64,000 nucleotides of DNA from Candidatus Saccharimonadota bacterium (lineage in GTDB: Bacteria; Patescibacteriota; Saccharimonadia; UBA4664): the NCBI GenBank assembly GCA_019352195.1, contig JACAFG010000002.1, forward strand, positions 19,120-83,119. Direction: 5' to 3'. The notes beneath the pieces are model-generated. The model ran no database searches, was not told the origin of the DNA, and saw nothing but the letters and a program-made list of their open reading frames with translations. Both the position numbers and the translations under genes were made by a program. This document shows positions 6,830 to 64,000 of the stretch, one piece after another; the stretch's first letter is position 1; each line of letters starts with the position of its first letter.

Positions 6830-7111
6830 GTGATGAAGCTTATACCAGCTGATGACCGAATTATTGCTTTGCAGACTAAGCCGGAGACGAAGACAAATTC
6901 GGGATTGTTATTGTCGACGGGAGTAGAAATTAAGCCCCCAACCTGTACGGTGGTATCGGTGGGTAAGGACATTCATACTTACAAGCCAGGTGACATCATT
7001 ATGTTTGCTGAGCCCCACTCGAGCGACTCAACATTTCGCAAATTCGTGATTGATGATGAAGAGTACGTGTTTCTCAAGCAGGCTGATGTAATGGCTAAAG
7101 TAGAGGGTTAA
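6830..7111 (+). CDS. groES: co-chaperonin GroES
   Basis: 93 aa, KLIPADDRIIALQ...GLLL N-terminus. aaggag RBS 6 nt upstream. Confidence 0.9.
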   Translation: MMKLIPADDRIIALQTKPETKTNSGLLLSTGVEIKPPTCTVVSVGKDIHTYKPGDIIMFAEPHSSDSTFRKFVIDDEEYVFLKQADVMAKVEG

Positions 7112-7120
7112 GGAGGAAAT

Positions 7121-8791
7121 ATGGCAAAGAAGATTTTTTATGATGATGATGCTCGCGGCCGAGTGTTGGCTGGCGCCAAAGAACTCTATGACGCCGTTAA
7201 GGTAACAATGGGACCAAAGGGCCGTAACGTGGTGATTCAGCGCAGCTATGGCGGACCGGCCGTAACTCATGATGGCGTGACGGTTGCAAAAGCTGTCGAA
7301 ATCAACGAGTCAGTAAAAGACGATGCCTCATTGGGTAAGAGCGTGGGGGCAGAGCTAATTAAGAGTGCAGCTTCAAAGACGGCTGATAACGTTGGTGACG
7401 GTACAACCACTTCGACGGTACTGGCTTATCACATTTTGAATGAGGCTAATAAACTGGTTGCTGCCGGTCATAACCCGATGGACCTAAAAAAGGGCCTAGA
7501 TGAGGCGGCAGCGCTGGTTTTGGGCGCGGTTGGCAGTATGACCGAGCAAATTGCCGGTAAACGGGACAAAGTGGCTCAGGTAGCGACGGTATCGGCCGGA
7601 GACGCCGAAATTGGTGATTTAATTGCTGACGTGATTGAAGCTGTAGGTAACGATGGCAGTGTCACGGTTGAGCAGAGTCAAACTTTGGGTCTGGAGAAGG
7701 AAATTGTTGAAGGCTTCCAGATTGATCGCGGTTACATTAGTGCTTACATGTCGACTGATATGGTGCGAATGGAAGCCAGCTATGAAAAGCCGTTGATTTT
7801 GGTGACCGACAAGAAGATCGGTAATATTCAGGAAATCTTGCCGCTGCTCGAGAAGATCGCTCAGGGCGGTAAGAAAGAACTGGTGATTATTGCCGAAGAT
7901 GTTGAAGGCGACGCTTTGGCAACGCTTATTTTGAACCGGCTAAAGGGCGTTTTTAATACGCTAGCCATTAAGGCGCCTTCGTTTGGTGATCGCCGCAAAG
8001 CGACACTTGAAGATATTGCGATTCTTACGGGCGCAACCGTGATTAGCGAAGAAATGGGCTATTCATTTGAGAATGCCACGATCGAGATGCTGGGAACGGC
8101 CCGCAAAGTAATTTCGGATAAAGATTCGACCACAATTATTGAAGGCTCTGGTGATGCCAAAACCGTAGCCGAGCGTATGACCCAAATCAAAGCGCAGGCT
8201 GAAGATGCGACGAGCGAGTACGACAAGGAAAATCTTGAGAAGCGTTTGGCGGCTCTGGCTGGCAAAGTGGCGGTAATTAAGGTTGGCGGGGCTACCGAGA
8301 CCGAAATGAATGAGAAGAAAGACCGCGTTGATGATGCAGTGGCGGCTACGAAAGCAGCTGTGGCCGAGGGAATTGTTCCTGGCGGCGGGGTAACACTGGT
8401 CGATTTGAGTAAGAAGCTGGAAGTCGCGGCGACGACTGTTTCGAGCTCGGCACATGCAGGTCAATTGATTTTGAAAAACGCGCTAATGCAGCCGTTTAAG
8501 CAATTGATGCTAAACGCCGGTTTGAACGCCGAAGAGAAGCTGTCTAAGGTAATGGAATCGTCCGCCACCGGTATGGGTTTTGATGTGAACCAGGCAGATA
8601 AGTTGGTTAACCTTAAGGCGCAGGGAATTGTCGACCCGGCTAAAGTTACTCGTGAAGCGATTCAAAATGCCGTTTCGGTGGCCGGCACGGCTATGACTAT
8701 GGGCGCGCTGATCGTCGAGTTGCCAGAAGAAAAAGCGGCTCCATCGGCTGGTGGTGGCATGCCCGGCGGCATGGGCGGAATGGACTATTAA
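7121..8791 (+). CDS. groEL: chaperonin GroEL
   Basis: 556 aa. AKKIFYDDDAR...TMGPKGRNVV N-terminus, C-terminal GGM repeat (GGGMPGGMGGMDY). Confidence 0.95.
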   Translation: MAKKIFYDDDARGRVLAGAKELYDAVKVTMGPKGRNVVIQRSYGGPAVTHDGVTVAKAVEINESVKDDASLGKSVGAELIKSAASKTADNVGDGTTTSTVLAYHILNEANKLVAAGHNPMDLKKGLDEAAALVLGAVGSMTEQIAGKRDKVAQVATVSAGDAEIGDLIADVIEAVGNDGSVTVEQSQTLGLEKEIVEGFQIDRGYISAYMSTDMVRMEASYEKPLILVTDKKIGNIQEILPLLEKIAQGGKKELVIIAEDVEGDALATLILNRLKGVFNTLAIKAPSFGDRRKATLEDIAILTGATVISEEMGYSFENATIEMLGTARKVISDKDSTTIIEGSGDAKTVAERMTQIKAQAEDATSEYDKENLEKRLAALAGKVAVIKVGGATETEMNEKKDRVDDAVAATKAAVAEGIVPGGGVTLVDLSKKLEVAATTVSSSAHAGQLILKNALMQPFKQLMLNAGLNAEEKLSKVMESSATGMGFDVNQADKLVNLKAQGIVDPAKVTREAIQNAVSVAGTAMTMGALIVELPEEKAAPSAGGGMPGGMGGMDY

Positions 8792-8812
8792 CAAAGTCTA
8801 GCCTGATCTATA

Positions 8813-8842
8813 AAGAGGCTCCTGCGGGAGCCTCTTTCTTGT
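8813..8842 (+). terminator. intrinsic terminator of groESL
   Basis: aagaggctcc-tgcg-ggagcctctt followed by tctt. Confidence 0.75.
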
Positions 8843-8865
8843 TGGTTAAGCCACGACTGATGTAA

Positions 8866-8895
8866 TTGACGACAACTTTTGTGATGTGGTACTGT
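8866..8895 (+). promoter_or_regulatory. putative sigma70-type promoter P1 (TTGACG, 18-nt spacer, extended -10 TGgTACTGT) at the start of the GC-rich non-coding locus
   Basis: aaTTGACGacaacttttgtgatgTGgTACTGTctg. Near-identical architecture to P2 at 9938..9966. Confidence 0.4.
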
Positions 8896-9937
8896 CTGTT
8901 CCATCACGTGGCGTTTATAGCCATAAGAATTTTGACACTTCGGTTAGATTTCTGCCTCGATTGTTCGGCTGATAGCTTCGGTAGTACCGCGGTTGCCAGC
9001 CGAACAAACGAGTGCACCGTTTGTTTTGCCTTTGTCTGCGCGCGCTCGATTTTTGAACGAACGGCGGATAGAGTCCACGCCAGCAATTTCATAGTGAACC
9101 GGGCAACCGGGCCGCTTGAGTTAGTTGGCTGTGAGCTGAGTCGGTGGGCATGTCCATCGGCGTTCATTGACGGGCTGCCTGTAGCTCGCGAAGTCCTCGG
9201 AACAGATACCGAGGCAATCGAACAGCCCCGCACGTAAGTCTGCGCGGCAAAAGGCGCCGGCCGATCATCATATCGGCGGCAAACCGTTGTGCCTCAAGAA
9301 CGTCGGGCGTCATGAAGTAACGTCCCGAAACGGCTTGAGTTCATGTCCTGCGATGGTGTTAGGAGTGAACGGCTTGAACGCTCGTGACCCGACCTTGTAG
9401 TTTGTCCTGGCCCTTCGACCCTGTCCATGTCACTGCGAGGGGCGCTCAGCGCTCAACCAAACCTCCGGCCCGCCGCGGCCACCTGATCCCGTCGATCGCC
9501 GCGAACATGGGATCAATGCAACATTGATTCGCGGCAACTGCTATGTGGATGCGGCGTCGAAGCTGCCGTGTCCTCGGTTGGTGTTGGTTCTCGTTCACAC
9601 CAAGTGCTGTTCGCAGGGCGGACAACACATGATTTCAGCACTGTGCCGAGGCTCTGTCATGCGGCGTATCTTTGCGGCCTGGCCGCGTCTGTGGGACTCA
9701 GACGGGCGAGCCGAACAATTACGGATGGCGCCAAAGATCACGAACAGCGCACGAGAAGTGCTGATTGGCATTGTTGATTAAAGTTAGTACTACGGCCGCC
9801 AGGGCCGGCCCTGCGATAGGGCAAAATTTGGACCGCGCGGTTGGCGGACGGGGTTCGCAAGACCCTCGTCCGCCAACTGACCGCCATTGTGGGCGTTTGT
9901 ACAATTGTACGAGCGCCCTTTTGCTTAACAAAAGTTG

Positions 9938-9966
9938 TTGACAAAGTTAGACTAATATGCTACTGT
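9938..9966 (+). promoter_or_regulatory. putative promoter P2 (TTGACA, 17-nt spacer, extended -10 TGcTACTGT) internal to the non-coding locus
   Basis: gTTGACAaagttagactaataTGcTACTGTtttt, embedded in a local AT-rich patch inside roughly 60 % GC sequence. Confidence 0.4.
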
Positions 9967-10634
9967 TTTTCTCATCTGCCGCTATGGCAGCCCTTTGACA
10001 CCAATCAAGAAACGTTGTTGCCCGACTGCGAGCTACGCAACCTGCGTGGTTTACAGTCGGGCAACACGCAGGTTGCCGACATTGAGATCGCGGTTCGGGA
10101 AGGCCACTGACTGGCCTCAGCTGCGATCCACCACCACCACTTCCACATTCGCCGGCGACTCGACGGGCGTCCCCGTCTACCGGGACACCGGTAGACGGGT
10201 GGCCGGCAGCGCGGCCAGCGGGTTCATGCCCGCGGCCGGCTGATCGGTCTCGCGGCCCAAAAGAATTACGCCTCCTTGGCGTAGCGAGCAAGCAATTCGT
10301 CGGTACTCAGATAAGCAGACAACTGGCCGCTAGGCTGGTCTGATGAACTACTGAGATACGAACGGCGATTTGATCTCGCGTTGTTTGAGCGTCCCTCAGG
10401 TCGGCGGACCTTACTCGCGGCTTGGCACAGTCGACGGTTGCATGACCGTTCATTGCCGGCTGGCTGGAATATAACGGACTCCTCTGAGAGCCATATTCCG
10501 GCCAGTCCCAAACTTCCGCCTCCGGGCGATTCGAAACGCTCGTTGATGAACGCATGTGGCGCTGATCTGGTCCGACGCCTCGGCCGTGGAGGATCGGGCC
10601 GACTAGGCTGCCGTTTGTTTGATCTCAACGAGTG

Positions 10635-10677
10635 CCGGACCGGAGCACACTCCCTGTGATGGGGTGCTCCGGTCCGG
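10635..10677 (+). terminator. long perfect hairpin (14-bp stem): first of two tandem terminator-like structures at the 3' end of the non-coding locus
   Basis: ccggaccggagcac-N15-gtgctccggtccgg. Confidence 0.5.
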
Positions 10678-10718
10678 ACTAGCTTCTTGATTGGTACGTT
10701 TGTACCTCGTTCACCCTC

Positions 10719-10748
10719 GCGGGACCATCTGGTCCCGCTTTTGCGTGT
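10719..10748 (+). terminator. intrinsic terminator (8-bp GC stem plus U-tract)
   Basis: gcgggacc-atct-ggtcccgc followed by ttttgcgtgttttg. Confidence 0.65.
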
Positions 10749-10784
10749 TTTGCGGCAATTATTTTAAAATGCTAGGCTTAGAGT

Positions 10785-11570
10785 ATGGAAATGCCTTCAT
10801 TGTTGAATCAACGTGCCGAAGAGATCTTAACGTTTATTGAGTCCTACCGGGCAGAATATGGTTGGGCGCGGGTCGTTGAGTTGGCGCGTGAGAAGTTTGT
10901 TGAAAATGAAGCTCAGCCGGCGCAGCAAGCCTTGGGCGATTTGCTGCTGCAGGCACGGACCTTGGCGCTGGTTCAAGGGCAGCTCGACGATGATCGGCAC
11001 GCCTTGCACTCGGGCCGGCTGAATCATGAGCAAGACATCAGCATCGGGCATCATTACGAGATGCTGCGCCAGGAAGCGTGTACCTACAACCATCAGTTGC
11101 GCGGTTTTATTGAATCGCACCGCGACAGCGTTGATAGGTATGACCTCACGAGATGGTTGGCGACGGCGAGCGGTGGCCGTCACGCTTGGGCTGAAAGCGA
11201 AATTACCGGGGCGGTGAGTGAAATTGCGCTTCATGCAGCACTGATGGGGTTGCCTGAGCTGGTAGATTTGCGCTACGGCAGCTTGGGTGAAGATTTGCAC
11301 GGCTATGACTTTGTGGCCACATGGCAGGGACGGCTGTTAACGGTTGACGCCAAAACCGGTTATTTTCACCCTTTGACCGAGGAAAAGCATGGTCATGAGC
11401 ATCTGGAAATTCATGTGCCGAGGGATGTAGTGCAGGGCTTTCGGCTAACGAGGAGCGGTTTAGACGATTTACGCCGCGATGTTCGCGGGGCGTTGCGGTT
11501 TAAAGTTGGTGTCGAGCCCCATGCTTCGCACAAGCACTACGCCTTTAAACCGATTGTCGCAACGGCGTAA
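10785..11570 (+). CDS. hypothetical protein (261 aa), no recognisable domain
   Basis: Long ORF with protein-like composition, flanked by GC-rich non-genic sequence on both sides. Confidence 0.5.
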   Translation: MEMPSLLNQRAEEILTFIESYRAEYGWARVVELAREKFVENEAQPAQQALGDLLLQARTLALVQGQLDDDRHALHSGRLNHEQDISIGHHYEMLRQEACTYNHQLRGFIESHRDSVDRYDLTRWLATASGGRHAWAESEITGAVSEIALHAALMGLPELVDLRYGSLGEDLHGYDFVATWQGRLLTVDAKTGYFHPLTEEKHGHEHLEIHVPRDVVQGFRLTRSGLDDLRRDVRGALRFKVGVEPHASHKHYAFKPIVATA

Positions 11571-11581
11571 CTCTTGGGCGG

Positions 11582-11821
11582 GTGCGCGGTTCGGTGCCCG
11601 CGTCTGAGCTGGGTGACCGGCTCCTGGGCCTGGCCCGGCTCCTCCAAACAGAGGTGGGAGTGCGGTTACCGGAGGCATTCACTAGCCTCATGATCACGGC
11701 TTCGTCGGCGGCCTTTCCCGACATCAGCCTCGAGCTCGTTCGGCCGGCCATAAGTGCCATCCGTGACTACCTCGAGGTCGCCAAGGCCGCCGTGTCAGCG
11801 GCACCAACGGTGACTGTCTGA
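11582..11821 (+). CDS. possible small protein (79 aa, GTG start) in a 62 % GC spacer; may be non-coding
   Basis: Amphipathic sequence, but no RBS and a GTG start 12 nt after the preceding stop. Confidence 0.2.
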   Translation: MRGSVPASELGDRLLGLARLLQTEVGVRLPEAFTSLMITASSAAFPDISLELVRPAISAIRDYLEVAKAAVSAAPTVTV

Positions 11822-11932
11822 TCTGGACGCAATCCGCATTTGAAGACCGTTTGGCTCCTCACCAGAGCCACAGCGCCCTCGGCTAACGCAGGGGGCGTCT
11901 TCATGCCATAATGGTTGTAACATGGAGGTGAA

Positions 11933-13033: not shown

Positions 13034-13123
13034 GGAGGGGTCGCATAGTGGCCTAGTGCGCTCGCTTGGAAAGCGAGTAAGGGGGCAACTCCTTCGAGAG
13101 TTCGAATCTCTCCCTCTCCGCCA
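13034..13123 (+). tRNA. tRNA-Ser (anticodon GGA), class II with long variable arm, CCA encoded
   Basis: Hand-folded: acceptor GGAGGGG/CCUCUCC (one G.U), D-stem gca/tgc, anticodon stem ctcgc/gcgag with loop ttGGAaa, variable stem-loop, T-arm gagag-ttcgaat-ctctc, discriminator G plus CCA. Confidence 0.8.
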
Positions 13124-27668: not shown

Positions 27669-28299
27669 GTGGGAAATGACGCATACAAATGGGTCCGTAA
27701 GAATGATGAGGAAATTATTCTCCGTTTTGCTGATCCAAGGATAATAAGGCCAGTTGAAAATCCAATTACTTTTTTATGGCTGGCTCGCCCGGCGCCGGTA
27801 AGACTGAATGGGCACGTTCATTGATCGTCAACCTCGCAAATGACAAAGAAGAACCGACAGAGTTTGTTCACATAGACCCTGACGAAATAAGAAAGCTATT
27901 TGATGGCTATAATGGCACAAATGTTTCGGAATTTACTCGAGCAACTAGTACTGCGGTAGGACGTATTCTTGATCGGACAAATCGTCTTGGACAAAACGTC
28001 ATTGTCGACGGGACCTTATCCAGGTATGATGCCGTGGCGAAAGACGTTGATTCTTATATAGGAAACATGGTCGGAGCACAGTAATTTTCTTTGTATACCA
28101 AAAGCCGGAATTAGCTTGGTATTTCACGAAGGCAAGGGCAGCTGACCCTGAAGACGGGCGCGTTGTTGATAAGCTGACATCGATTGCCGCATACGTGTAG
28201 TCTATCCAAAATGCCAACGCCTTAAAGCGTAAATACGGATCACATATACAACTTCATATCATTGAAAAAGATGCGTTGAATAGGGTAAAAAAGGTTTAA
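27669..28299 (+). pseudogene. zeta-toxin-like / AAA_33-type P-loop kinase gene, degraded by two frameshifts and one in-frame TAG
   Basis: GTG at 27669 after an aggaga RBS gives MGNDAYKWVRKNDEEIILRFADPRIIRPVENPITF. A T6 run at 27770..27775 shifts frame into MAGSPGAGKTEWARSLIV... (Walker A), continuing to 28084. Protein-like continuation lies in a third frame from 28087 (FFVYQKPELAWYFTKARAADPEDGRVVDKLTSIAAYV). An in-frame TAG at 28198 is followed by SIQNANALKRKYGSHIQLHIIEKDALNRVKKV, ending at 28299. Confidence 0.5.
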
Positions 28300-28316
28300 T
28301 TTTAATAAACACACTA

Positions 28317-28345
28317 TTGACAACTATGTTGAAAAAGTCTATAGT
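28317..28345 (+). promoter_or_regulatory. near-consensus sigma70 promoter (TTGACA, 17-nt spacer, TATAGT) for the small basic-protein gene
   Basis: TTGACAactatgttgaaaaagtcTATAGT. Confidence 0.6.
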
Positions 28346-28370
28346 ATTAATTAATTGGAGGAACTAATTA

Positions 28371-28544
28371 ATGTTTAATCTCTTGAAAAAAGATAAACCA
28401 AAAAAGAAGAACCTTCTGGAATTGCCAGCAGCTAAACAAAAGAAGAGTTACAAAGAAGCAGCCGATAGATCAATAGACATGCAAGTGGAGGTTGTGAACA
28501 AATATAAAAATGCGCTTGGCGAAAAAATCGAGCGTAATAGATAG
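28371..28544 (+). CDS. small lysine-rich basic protein (57 aa), unknown function
   Basis: Complete expression unit: promoter 28317..28345, GGAGG RBS (28357..28361), ATG, intrinsic terminator 28552..28573. MFNLLKKDKPKKKNLLELPAAKQKKSYKEAADRSIDMQVEVVNKYKNALGEKIERNR. Confidence 0.5.
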   Translation: MFNLLKKDKPKKKNLLELPAAKQKKSYKEAADRSIDMQVEVVNKYKNALGEKIERNR

Positions 28545-28551
28545 CTAAACT

Positions 28552-42868: not shown

Positions 42869-43004
42869 ATTGACTTTTGAGCTTAAATCTTCTATTTTCA
42901 TCATTAACTCCAACTGCTGATTCAAAAATTCACCAGCGGGAGTTGCATAAAATTTGCCCGTGTTCACGCCTAGTGATCTCCGCCGATTGGTGGAAAGGCA
43001 ATTC

Positions 43005-43315
43005 ATGAGTGAAATATCGGAGCCTCCTGGGGCGAGCTCATCTCGCCGCCTAAGAGGCAGGTTTGGCGTTGGTACGTCGGGATAGCGCTGGTGCTAGCAG
43101 CAGCGGCGTTCATCGTCTTGATGCGAATGTATTCGGTCACGGCCGGGCGTTGGGCTACGGTGGTGGTGTTTGCACAGCTCACGTTGCTCGCCTGGCATTG
43201 GTTTGCCACCACATCTCGGCCCCATTACGGTCGCCTGGTGGCGTTTCTGAGCTTATTCATCATGAGCGCTGTGTTGGCGCTTATTGCAGGGTTCAGCTTG
43301 CTCGGGGTAATTTAG
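43005..43315 (+). CDS. possible small membrane protein; the start region may contain a frameshift
   Basis: The hydrophobic ORF 43091..43315 lacks an ATG. An upstream ATG at 43005 with a ggaaagg RBS is in another frame. Confidence 0.25.
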
Positions 43316-43470
43316 GCCGAGACGTTCGGGCAACAAATTGTCGTCGGCCGGAGTGAAAACTTCGGCCGACGGCCTCACATTTGTTCCATTATCTGATAAT
43401 GTGGCTGGTGCGAGGTTTTTTGACCTCCGAGTTCACTCATCGATCTTCGACAACCTAGATAGGACTAGCT

Positions 43471-43785
43471 GTGACCGACCCATTAGATGATTGGCGTTTT
43501 ATCCTTGCTAGCACCGAGCATGTCAGCGTCGTGCTTGGGACCGACCGTGTCACCCTGACCTATTCACCGGCCAGGAAAATATTGGTGGTGGCCATCGATT
43601 CGGACAGCCGTAATGCTGTGACGGTGAGGGTATACTCCACCTTTCCAAGCGCAAAAACCCCGACCGAGCCGATCGCGACCGGCGTGGTGGATAATCGCAT
43701 GACGCGATTGACGCTGCCCTCAGATTTCGGGCGACGTCATATCGAGCACCTGAAACTTGTGATAGGCGCAGACGAAATCGAGTAG
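43471..43785 (+). CDS. hypothetical protein (104 aa)
   Basis: Protein-like ORF. No motif recognised. Confidence 0.4.
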   Translation: MTDPLDDWRFILASTEHVSVVLGTDRVTLTYSPARKILVVAIDSDSRNAVTVRVYSTFPSAKTPTEPIATGVVDNRMTRLTLPSDFGRRHIEHLKLVIGADEIE

Positions 43786-62902: not shown

Positions 62903-63100
62903 CGTAATTGTCTGAATGCTCGGGTTCACCTGAATCTGCGCTTCGCATACTACATACGTACCGTACGCCTTACTCCGATTCAATTCATCCTGCTAAAGCA
63001 TCGCTCAGCCAATCACTGAACCTTTGGACTTGAGATAATGTCCTGAACTCGTTAACAGCGGATAAAAATCCGTCACAATAAACTAAATGAGAGATTTAAA

Positions 63101-63319
63101 ATGGCTAATTTTTACTCAAAGAAAGTCTGCCGCTTTTGTGCAGAGAAGATCGATCACGTCGACTACAAAGATGTGAAGCTGTTGCAGCGTTTTCTTTCTA
63201 GCTACGGCAAGATTGAAACGCGCAAGCGCACTGGAAACTGCCTGCGCCATCAGCGCCGGGTTGCGATTGCCCTCAAGCGTGCCCGCCACATCGCTTTGCT
63301 GCCGTTCTTAGTACGCTAA
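63101..63319 (+). CDS. rpsR: 30S ribosomal protein S18
   Basis: [24 protein letters not shown]...[29 protein letters not shown]. Confidence 0.9.
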
Positions 63320-63521
63320 ACGGCGTAATGCGGCGATGGAGCTTATAATCCTTCTTCACGGCATGAATCTGTGCGGCTCATTCTCAGCTTAACCGCCACT
63401 TGGTATTGTAGGAGTGGAGCGTACTCAGCAATTACTTAAGGGTCAGTGAATGAGAGATGCCTCCGGCCGTAATTGGCCGTTTGGGCTATCCCATACCGCC
63501 TGATAATATAAGGAAAACCCC

Positions 63522-64000
63522 ATGATTCTCGGTCATACCGAAGTAAAAGTTGGCGTTCTCATCGAGCTCGATGGGGTGCCTTATCGCGTCACCGAATCCA
63601 CTCACAAAGCGTTGGGTCGGGGTGGCGCGGTCGTGCAGGCAAAAATTAAGAACCTTATAACCGGCAATGTGGTGGAAAAATCATTTCGTACGGCCGACAA
63701 AGTGAGCACCGCCGAAGTTAACCGTAGTAATATGCAGCTGCTGTACCGTGATGGCGCCAACTTGGTACTTATGAACACCGAGACCTATGATCAAGACACC
63801 GTTGCCGAGGACACTTTGGGTGATCAGGCTAAATATGTCGCCGATAGCGCCATTGTGCAGATAGTGGAGTTTAACGGCCGAGTCATAGGTATGGAGATGC
63901 CTAACGCCGTGGTGCTCAAGGTCGTTGCGACTGAGCCGGGCGTAAAAGGCGATACCGCTACGACGGCCCTTAAGCCGGCTACTCTCGAAACCGGCGTAAT
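63522..64000 (+). CDS. efp: elongation factor P (3' partial; continues beyond the window)
   Basis: MILGHTEVKVGVLIELDGVPYRVTESTHKALGRGGAVVQAKIKNLITGN... aaggaaaa RBS. Confidence 0.8.
   Translation, partial: MILGHTEVKVGVLIELDGVPYRVTESTHKALGRGGAVVQAKIKNLITGNVVEKSFRTADKVSTAEVNRSNMQLLYRDGANLVLMNTETYDQDTVAEDTLGDQAKYVADSAIVQIVEFNGRVIGMEMPNAVVLKVVATEPGVKGDTATTALKPATLETGV

Follow-up and report, generated by a model that had tools for sequence, protein, structure and literature searches.

Within the 64-kb window (the whole stretch of DNA analysed), groEL (7121–8791) and the next gene (10785–11570) are separated by a ~2-kb interval (8792–10784) without a gene. The longest stop-to-stop frame in the interval spans 129–165 amino acids, which by our own estimate is about the length found in random sequence of the same composition, and the sole gene call by the annotators of this Saccharimonadia (TM7/Patescibacteria) metagenome-assembled genome (MAG) between groEL and the next gene is a 40-amino acid open reading frame (ORF). 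The proposal in an earlier note on this DNA that ~1.9 kb lack a credible reading frame therefore held, with no ORF beyond chance length at 8792–10784. The same note put local GC content at about 60%; sub-windows do reach 0.60–0.62, compared with 0.51 in groEL and 0.525 in the whole window, but the interval overall has a lower value of 0.57. All of the long inverted repeats that had been listed are present (8961–8971/8997–9007, 9840–9877, 10018–10028/10054–10064, 10172–10199 and 10635–10677), and hairpins are indeed more frequent than usual: the interval makes up 3% of the window yet contains 6 of its 21 perfect stem–loops of at least 9 bp, a number above chance. Folding z-scores over 200 nt are as low as −7.5 in the interval and are stronger on the + strand than on the − strand, but the excess of structure is not uniform, as positions 9200–9700 fold no better than shuffled sequences. 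Logan's independent assembly of that sequencing run gave an identical interval, base for base.

Two tandem promoter-to-terminator units

The pattern TTGAC-N15-19-TACTGT occurs twice in the 64-kb window (0.08 matches expected), both times in the interval and on the + strand, consistent with the suggestion of two promoters of one design. These promoters mark two tandem + strand promoter-to-terminator units, U1 (8866–9922) and U2 (9938–10742). Their features are listed below; promoters, start sites and terminators were assigned by consensus match only.

8812–8837, + strand: groEL intrinsic terminator, an 11-bp perfect hairpin and then a T-rich tail; left boundary, outside the units
8866–8895, + strand: U1 promoter (consensus match), −35 TTGACG, TG extension at 8887–8888, −10 TACTGT
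8902–8905, + strand: U1 CATC, putative transcription start, placed after the −10 as in relatives
8908–8924, + strand: U1 P0, 5′-terminal hairpin GTGGC/GCCAT; stem covaries among members (alignments A2 and A7)
8930–8937, + strand: U1 conserved box TTTTGACA, near-invariant TTTGACA columns in alignments A2, A3 and A7
8956–9012, + strand: U1 P2, bipartite hairpin, outer stem 8961–8971/8997–9007 (RNAalifold and pair counts)
9013–9839, + strand: U1 body, lineage-specific, GC 0.59, codon-model score ~0, mean folding z = −0.7
9840–9877, + strand: U1 P3, 17-bp hairpin just 5′ of the terminator, in the same position as P3 of other members
9891–9922, + strand: U1 intrinsic terminator, 12-bp stem and TTTTGC
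9938–9966, + strand: U2 promoter (consensus match), −35 TTGACA, TG extension at 9958–9959, −10 TACTGT
9973–9990, + strand: U2 putative CATC start and P0 hairpin, CTGCC (9976–9980) and GGCAG (9986–9990); covarying
9993–10000, + strand: U2 conserved box CTTTGACA, near-invariant TTTGACA columns in the alignments
10000–10011, + strand: U2 P1 5′ strand ACCAATCAAGAA, 12-bp perfect complement of 10684–10695
10016–10066, + strand: U2 P2, bipartite hairpin, outer stem 10018–10028/10054–10064
10067–10634, + strand: U2 body, lineage-specific, GC 0.61, strongly structured, mean body z = −3.4
10635–10677, + strand: U2 P3, 14-bp perfect hairpin 6 nt 5′ of the P1 3′ strand; position kept in all members
10684–10695, + strand: U2 P1 3′ strand TTCTTGATTGGT, pairs with 10000–10011
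10719–10742, + strand: U2 intrinsic terminator, 8-bp GC stem and TTTTGC

Both promoters fit the strong-promoter consensus of the clade, TTGAC-N14-16-TGnTAnnnT. CATC lies 6–7 nt 3′ of the −10 in U1, U2 and units of four relatives (L085, L086, L087 and L095), and the transcription start was placed from it. On its 3′ side, P2 of U1 carries a conserved GCGGTTnnCAG; canonical P1 is absent from this unit. In U2, P1 is retained in both MFE and centroid folds (duplex z = −3.3 versus shuffles), the body includes a 12-bp perfect hairpin (10172–10199) and the whole unit folds with z = −9.3. The locus ends as had been described, with a 14-bp hairpin (10635–10677) followed by an intrinsic terminator (10719–10738 and TTTTGC). 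The idea of an RNA pair fits this organization, in which two + strand units, non-coding as they stand, run from promoter to terminator and have predicted transcripts.

Searches with Rfam 15 at gathering thresholds revealed tRNA-Ser (13034–13120) as the sole match in the whole window and none in the interval, in keeping with the claim that no RNA family is recognizable there. At E ≤ 10, the interval yielded only generic hairpin matches to miRNA and sRNA models, far below threshold. ARAGORN found only the tRNA-Ser outside the interval, and Rfam on relatives L085–L087 detected tRNA only. A frameshift-corrected protein homologue, which would have marked a decayed gene, was likewise absent from all of the comparisons made: Pfam searches of 10 ORFs and of all six frames of the interval with stops masked, tblastx of the interval against 80 + 4 related loci, and tblastn of island cargo proteins returned nothing. 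Codon-model scores on the + strand ranged from −5 to +1.5, versus 10–30 in real genes, with native and foreign models. The sole coding-like patch, on the minus strand at 9980–10280, holds TAG, TGA and TAA stops and had no match among 5.8 billion proteins. GC-periodicity plots were not relied on because they are noisy in this genome, where many real genes score low too. We also rejected a recoded gene with UGA or UAG as sense codons, as ORF scans under four stop schemes gave TGA-sense frames of 243–383 amino acids that are non-coding by score; the flanking genes translate normally with code 11. A small-protein mRNA was rejected as well, since the units share no ORF and two of them lack one altogether; no SD-ATG follows P2. 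In the literature, we did not find such RNAs or the groEL–PGI island described in Saccharibacteria.

A covarying frame around unrelated bodies

Units built to the same design occupy the groEL–PGI interval of related Saccharimonadia genomes. Their common frame consists, in order, of an extended −10 promoter, CATC, P0, the (C)TTTGACA box, P1, P2, a variable body, P3, the P1 3′ strand and an intrinsic terminator. P1 is a helix of 12–18 bp; it starts at the box's GACA, and its partner segment lies 10–22 nt 5′ of the terminator; P2 lies just inside P1, and the GC-rich P3 lies just 5′ of the P1 3′ strand. Conservation covers ~100 nt at the 5′ end, the helix P1 that closes the unit and the hairpins at the 3′ end.

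Computation shows that this frame is homologous across genomes and that its helices are upheld by compensatory changes in the + strand RNA. P0 and P2 were predicted independently by RNAalifold, with 28 pairs, 19 of which have double-sided changes; 91% of their cells are paired, compared with 74% in shuffles (0 of 500 reach 91%) and 24–49% when the partner is slid. Covariation in relatives, one of the checks proposed for the locus, was thus found for the helices of the frame, on evidence from 6–9 sequences. P1 is present in five of the eight units defined from the leader alone, with shuffle z-scores of −3.3 to −5.1 in four; that of L087U, the helix of which carries a bulge, is only −1.3. It is perfect in L017U (16 bp) and L029U (17 bp), and the P1 of U2 has a counterpart at the homologous position in seven other units (L086, L087, L095, L023, L017, L029 and L013). 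Over P0, P1 and P2 we counted 216 Watson–Crick pairs, 11 G·U and no A·C, a tally that is somewhat biased because helices were partly hand-defined and G·U was counted as a pair; with P3, L017U and L029U added, it holds ~15 G·U and still no A·C. The fact that every imperfection is a G·U, with no A·C among them, indicates that pairing is under selection in the + strand RNA.

The covariance model R1 scores the units at 66–89 bits on the + strand and at most 30 bits on the − strand, matching U1 at 8902–9011 (73.7 bits) and U2 at 9973–10068 (89.2 bits on the + strand versus 28.9 on the − strand). It also detects L023, which was outside the training set, and nothing else in 2 Mb. MAFFT lost the register of the covarying P1 3′ strand and of the three most divergent P2 hairpins, and alignment A9, made with Infernal, included hits on the reverse strand, so no second model was built and P1 and P3 pairs were counted by hand, from anchored alignments.

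The bodies inside the frame show no similarity between genomes by blastn, tblastx or nhmmer across 80 loci from GTDB, 80 from metagenomes and 8 contigs from closer relatives. Absence of conservation in relatives, which the earlier note had said would count against a functional RNA, was therefore found for the body but not for the homologous, covarying frame, and function may therefore reside in the frame alone rather than in the bodies. The U1 and U2 sequences had no match in plasmid or phage collections, exact-hairpin scans of JGI metagenomes and IMG/VR for hairpins of the gap gave no match, and each body occurs only once across the window and 2 Mb of loci. A 9-mer, AGTAGGGCA, is common to three units and was dismissed, as its frequency equals chance. 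Body length varies from 0.5 to 1.1 kb across units with homologous frames, and the bodies are GC-rich and, in most members, more structured than chance.

Framed cassettes in the groEL–PGI island

In relatives, the same frame surrounds orphan ORFs of 159–342 amino acids (in L005, L013, L087, which has two, L092 and L095), and in L086 a P2-like 5′-UTR hairpin precedes a 457-amino acid gene. So far, the family comprises nine units without an ORF, from eight genomes, and no fewer than six that are coding. The groEL–PGI slot is empty in L006 and L010, where ~170 bp separate groEL from orf261, holds one unit in L085 and L087, and holds two in the window and L086; all units lie in a single orientation and a single interval. 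Cargo GC exceeds genome GC, and the slot takes up foreign GC-rich genes. Within the same frames, ORF-less bodies fold with a mean z of −2.08 versus −1.14 for coding cargo (p = 0.028), a difference of modest significance.

We favour, with a probability of roughly 55%, the interpretation that U1 and U2 are autonomous non-coding RNA units of an undescribed family of framed cassettes confined to a Saccharimonadia subclade. Because the frame also surrounds orphan protein genes in relatives, the window units are better viewed as ORF-less cassette members than as GOLLD/ROOL/OLE-like RNAs, and the conserved element as a cassette or UTR-like frame rather than a large ribozyme-like fold. Transcripts of ~1.0 kb (U1) and ~0.77 kb (U2) are predicted from the groEL strand. 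A 5′ hairpin, 5′–3′ pairing and a terminator hairpin would clamp both RNA ends, which may yield a nuclease-resistant stable transcript or, alternatively, a double-stranded processing site like the flanks of rRNA precursors. The window units would then be the RNA-only, ORF-less form of a modular accessory cassette in a hypervariable island. Saccharibacteria genomes are very small and densely coding, making it unlikely that two non-coding units, together 2 kb and with predicted strong promoters, lie idle beside groEL. What had been an isolated oddity can now be defined as a family, by its covariance model and closing helix and by a membership of nine units lacking an ORF and six or more coding ones. 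If the frame stabilizes or processes its contents, it would be a natural modular RNA scaffold and would also offer a view of how epibionts acquire and express fast-evolving accessory functions. More speculatively, and with low probability, the frame may be a general display or stabilization scaffold from which lineage-specific GC-rich sequences are over-expressed as orphan proteins or pure RNA, with ORF-less bodies acting on foreign or host nucleic acids. Such bodies could have been captured from high-GC hosts or their phages and might take part in epibiont–host or phage conflict, for instance as antisense, decoy or immunity-like RNAs. Leader and P2 pattern scans of IMG/VR for a viral origin gave chance hits only, all of which failed R1.

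As the frame precedes real protein genes, the ORF-less units could instead be cassettes that have lost their ORF, the strongest of the competing explanations though an unlikely one. U1 and U2 would once have been protein-coding, like cassettes in L013, L087 or L086, and their ORFs would have eroded, with the frame left over or recently inherited. The orphan ORFs framed in five relatives, the P2-like hairpin before the L086 gene, the uptake of foreign GC-rich genes by the slot, the unrelatedness of the bodies between genomes and the lack of excess structure in the U1 core (9200–9700) are all consistent with decay. However, we detected no leftover + strand coding signal, no SD-ATG after P2, no ORF common to the units and no similarity to cargo proteins, Pfam or the 5.8-billion-protein set. 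Moreover, nine ORF-less units in eight genomes keep perfect or near-perfect 12–18-bp helices along with consensus promoters, features that would be lost under neutral decay, and bodies without an ORF show more structure than coding cargo does. Were the ORF-less units dead cassettes, the island would still show an unusual, highly structured UTR architecture common to orphan genes.

It is improbable that P1 represents the terminal inverted repeats of a mobile DNA element, MITE-like or cassette-type, that brings variable cargo to a fixed expression site. Such an element would account for the variation in presence and copy number at one slot, for cargo that is coding or non-coding with GC above that of the genome, and for 12–18-bp inverted repeats that start with a conserved GACA...TGTC. 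DNA repeats should, however, accumulate both kinds of imperfection equally, whereas P1 and the other helices have ~15 G·U on the + strand and no A·C, and covariation of P0, P2 and P3 is unexpected for transposon ends. Inspection of the flanks by eye showed no target-site duplication, neither a transposase nor an integrase was seen in the island, no second body copy occurs in the window or 2 Mb of loci, and the units keep one orientation and one interval.

The earlier proposal of a GOLLD/ROOL/OLE-class RNA, large, ornate and ribozyme-like, with architecture conserved over the whole 0.8–1.9 kb, is disfavoured and seems very unlikely. It would explain why the locus is large, enriched in GC, dense in hairpins and equipped with a promoter and terminator, and why the folding z of U2 is strongly negative, but Rfam gave no match even at E ≤ 10, only the ends are conserved, homologous frames hold bodies of 0.5–1.1 kb without detectable similarity, and mRNAs use the frame as well. 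An assembly artefact or intergenic DNA devoid of function, with hairpins and motifs arising by chance, is effectively refuted, as the MAG origin and a body without a homologue anywhere searched are outweighed by exact agreement of two assemblies, motif, hairpin and folding statistics far from chance, and a frame that is conserved and covarying in eight genomes.

Relation to known systems

Several known systems share part of this design. Integron gene cassettes have an attC site, a nearby IntI integrase and a common promoter; here, we noticed no integrase gene among those called near the island, and every unit carries a promoter of its own. In retron msr–msd RNAs, the a1/a2 inverted repeats close a variable msd. 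As in retrons, conserved terminal inverted repeats would pair the transcript ends while the interior varies between systems, but the units are 3–5 times longer, have no reverse transcriptase gene beside them and do not enclose one long hairpin as their interior. In rRNA precursors, long-range 5′–3′ helices flank 16S and 23S rRNA and are cut by RNase III. Similarly, a perfect or near-perfect helix of 12–18 bp runs from after the leader to before the terminator around the whole body (10000–10011/10684–10695 in U2); unlike in rRNA, the enclosed body is unconserved and sometimes an mRNA, P1 is shorter than typical RNase III substrates and cleavage is hypothetical here. GOLLD, ROOL and OLE have intricate structure conserved along the entire RNA (Rfam; PMC12286853). 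The units resemble them in being non-coding, several hundred nucleotides to >1 kb long, GC-rich relative to the genome and equipped with their own transcription signals, but differ in being conserved at the ends only and in matching no Rfam model.

Morons of temperate phages have a base composition unlike that of their surroundings. They are independent promoter–gene–terminator units spread by horizontal transfer (PMC3594210). The units described here differ in lying in a bacterial chromosome island beside groEL and PGI, with no prophage and no phage match, and those in the window are without any gene. To our knowledge, described morons have no counterpart of the P0/box/P1/P2/P3 RNA frame. Like morons, the units appear autonomous, each with its own σ70-type promoter and intrinsic terminator by consensus match, and they are placed between two conserved genes, deviate in composition, are present or absent among relatives and carry orphan cargo.

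A gene-free interval after groEL

The source genome is a Saccharimonadia (TM7, Patescibacteria) MAG. Its groEL is separated by a gene-free 1,993 bp from orf261, which PGI follows. The layout is:

6830-8791: groES-groEL, upstream of the gap
8812-8837: terminator after groEL
8866-9922, + strand: U1, the first promoter-to-terminator unit of the gap
9938-10742, + strand: U2, the second such unit
10785-11570: orf261, a 261-aa ORF without a Pfam domain, between the gap and PGI

The longest stop-to-stop frames in the gap (129–165 aa) approximate those of random 57% GC sequence by our own estimate, so the earlier note's description of the locus as ORF-free was borne out; its GC enrichment also held, although at 0.57 (groEL, 0.51; window, 0.525) rather than about 60%. 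All hairpins that it listed are present, and six of the 21 perfect stem-loops of at least 9 bp in the 64 kb fall in the gap (3% of the sequence). Over 200-nt segments, folding z-scores fall as low as -7.5, with the + strand stronger across 9700-10400, and 9200-9700 folds no differently from shuffled sequence. The two promoters of one design were likewise recovered: TTGAC-N15-19-TACTGT occurs twice in the window (0.08 expected), both times in the gap on the + strand, each followed by a stretch that closes with an intrinsic terminator and then TTTTGC. The feature is real and non-random.

In Rfam 15, no family matched the gap at gathering thresholds, and relaxing to E ≤ 10 added just generic hairpin matches, in keeping with the earlier note's failure to recognise an RNA family. 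Pfam found no domain in the gap ORFs or in six stop-masked frames, and no frameshift-corrected protein homolog was found. Whether trained on native genes or on foreign high-GC genes from relatives, codon models scored the gap near 0 in all frames, versus 10–30 for real genes, with one exception on the minus strand at 9980-10280. This 300-nt patch has native-like codon usage (11–15 per 60 codons) but contains 2–4 stops of all three kinds (TAG, TGA and TAA), and a search of 5.8 billion proteins gave no homolog of it. The patch, which overlaps hairpin P2 of U2 (below) and the hairpin at 10172-10199, would run antisense to the transcript of U2. A recoded gene was rejected: reading TGA, TAG or TAA as sense lengthened frames, but codon usage was still not coding-like. 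The gap DNA matched nothing in plasmid and phage collections and has no second copy within the window; scans of JGI metagenomes and IMG/VR found no exact copy of its most distinctive hairpins.

A conserved frame in a variable island

The groEL–orf261–PGI order is conserved among relatives, with a groEL–orf261 distance ranging from about 170 bp, an empty site (L006 and L010), to 5 kb. Fillings of this slot share no relationship with the window or among themselves; in L013 (11860-13090) and L022 (3986-5200) they are different, unrelated foreign protein genes of 67–69% GC (GC3 up to 0.93) in genomes of about 45–58% GC. The variable distance, unrelated fillings and foreign high-GC genes together mark the slot, in the genomes compared, as a hypervariable landing site. 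A protein search and contig look-ups gave the closest available relatives (L085, L086 and L087; orf261 69–79% identical), which have the window's layout directly after the groEL terminator: a strong extended -10 promoter, then 0.6–1.2 kb that is raised in GC and lacks coding periodicity, and finally an intrinsic terminator on the + strand. Two of these units occur in L086, as in the window.

Alignment of unit starts uncovered genuine homology invisible to BLAST, with these shared elements in order:

Promoter: TTGACR-N14/15-TGnTAnnnT
Start: CATC, 6-7 nt after the promoter
P0: hairpin of 4-8 bp, stem sequence varying by member with pairing kept
Box: (C)TTTGACA, near-invariant, following P0
P2: bipartite hairpin with covarying stems and conserved GCGGTTnnCAG

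RNAalifold independently predicted P0 and P2 (28 pairs, 19 with double-sided changes), and 91% of cells were paired, compared with 74% after column shuffling (none of 500 shuffles reached 91%) and 24–49% when the partner was slid. A further helix, P1, pairs a segment starting at the box GACA with one 10–22 nt before the terminator. It was detected in U2 and four units of relatives (L086U1, L087U, L095U and L023U), with z of -3.3 to -5.1 against shuffles in four of the five and only -1.3 in L087U, lowered by a G·U pair and a bulge; P1 is perfect over 16 and 17 bp in L017U and L029U, and its sequence differs in every helix. All members have a GC-rich hairpin, P3, 4–14 nt upstream of the P1 3′ strand. 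R1, a covariance model of the 5′ domain, scored members at 66–89 bits on the + strand and at most 30 on the minus strand, detected L023 from outside its training set and had no further match across 2 Mb of related loci and the remainder of the window. U2 has the complete frame; U1 has promoter, P0, box, P2, P3 and terminator, with no canonical P1. Conservation in relatives, on which the earlier note's proposal depended, therefore extends to the frame (alignment, covariation and R1) but not to the bodies between P2 and P3, which are unrelated between genomes.

Perfect alternative pairings compete with the apical part of U2 P2 (10037-10048 with 10065-10076, 12 nt) and with U1 P2 (8960-8970 with 9709-9719, 11 nt); neither was seen in homologs. 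U1 also has a second copy of the P2 3′ strand at 9706-9718. A 17-nt inverted repeat (15/17 matching) links the U1 promoter spacer (8866-8882) to sequence just upstream of the U2 -35 (9928-9944), and the U2 promoter has a tandem -35-like repeat (TTAACAAAAGT / TTGACAAAGT); these could reflect a shared operator or chance. In three of the more distant members, (C)GCAATTAT(T/C)C follows the P1 3′ strand, ahead of the terminator or next gene (approximately L017 14214-14232, L023 13577-13599 and L029 15984-16010), a motif absent from U1 and U2.

Coding and ORF-less cassettes

Of 106 strong promoters, a generic screen for a distant reverse complement to the leader picked out 18 (5 in the control). Eleven of these 18 hits begin at (T/A)GACA, 30–43 nt after the -10, and all 11 lie in the groEL–PGI interval. 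Several framed hits surround orphan ORFs of 159–342 aa (L005, L013, L087 (two), L092 and L095); in L013 a 16-bp perfect P1 encloses SD, ORF and 3′ hairpin, and in L086 the 5′ UTR preceding a 457-aa gene contains a P2-like hairpin. Coding cassettes are located at:

L087 10899-12693
L085 10901-12588
L005 17622-18509
L092 1348-2142
L095 6918-8283

Island cargo proteins match neither Pfam nor PHROG families and show no resemblance to the ORF-less units, which have no small ORF in common. The encoded proteins are fast-evolving orphans, several with Ala/Pro/Thr-rich N-termini and many with basic tails, including the strongly basic C-termini KNKNKNKNK, KEKKDKNDKK and RTRKNRKK.

As the same frame surrounds orphan ORFs and ORF-less bodies, it reads as the modular, UTR-like architecture of an accessory-cassette island, in which the window has two ORF-less members. 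Phage morons have a foreign base composition. The moron, an independent promoter–gene–terminator unit (PMC3594210), is the nearest concept, but the framed units are chromosomal, have no phage link and can lack a gene. They belong to no Rfam family, and we found no prior description of such units in the literature. On sequence grounds, the description that fits U1 and U2 best is a pair of ORF-less members in a new family of framed candidate expression cassettes that is restricted to the clade. The earlier note's suggestion of an RNA pair was right, in that there are two + strand promoter-to-terminator units, each predicted to be transcribed.

Readings of the ORF-less units

We favor U1 and U2 as RNA-only cassettes producing functional RNA, with a probability of roughly 0.55. 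Across eight genomes, nine ORF-less units retain terminators, promoters that fit the consensus and helices of 12–18 bp that are perfect or nearly so, with no trace of coding left. Their bodies are GC-enriched and, with frame elements excluded, fold better than coding cargo from the same frames (mean z -2.08 versus -1.14, one-sided p = 0.028); all nine means are negative. This retention and folding argue against decayed protein-coding cassettes, a less probable alternative that is favored by the unrelated bodies, the partly degenerate U1 and the occurrence of P2 outside ORF-less units. A TIR-type mobile element is unlikely: a strand-symmetric DNA repeat would give G·U and A·C equally, whereas + strand imperfections in P0, P1 and P2 number 11 G·U to 0 A·C (about 15 to 0 with P3 and two extra members; roughly (1/2)^9 for the nine internal G·U in P0/P1/P2), counts to be read with the caveat that G·U was allowed as a pair in defining the helices. 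Still more doubtful is a GOLLD-like ornate RNA, the class proposed in the earlier note; unlike GOLLD, ROOL and OLE (PMC12286853), framed units conserve only their ends, and the frame also encloses protein genes. Chance or artefact is scarcely credible; an independent Logan assembly has an identical gap.

Bacterial RNAs can be protected from end-dependent decay by a 5′ hairpin, end-to-end pairing and a terminator hairpin. In an RNA-only cassette, such protection could come from P0 at the 5′ terminus, from P1, which would join the two ends next to the P2/P3 clamps, and from the terminator hairpin. rRNA precursors present RNase III sites through a long-range helix around the body, and P1 might do likewise. 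The conserved GACA/UGUC at the P1 base, with the TTTGACA box, suggests a specific recognition step.

Elsewhere in the window, the ORF-poor stretches 27900-28550 (AT-rich, GC 0.39, unlike the gap), 42869-43765 and 62903-64000 match neither the promoter motif nor R1. The orf261–PGI spacer (11571-11932) is non-coding, with GC of 0.63–0.64, and lacks a promoter, a terminator and elements of the frame; relatives carry one or two coding cassettes there, so the spacer may represent a remnant. orf261 itself appears leaderless, judging from its -35 TTGCGG, TG extension, -10 TAGGCT (10773-10778) and ATG at 10785 (region 10750-10787); TGCTAGGCTTA followed by ATG 7–10 nt later also precedes its orthologs in L086 and L022, and an additional 281-aa gene of L085 shares 29% identity with orf261. 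The right edge of the variable island is marked by tRNA-Ser(GGA) (13034-13123), directly downstream of PGI as in L085–L087; integration at tRNA genes is common.
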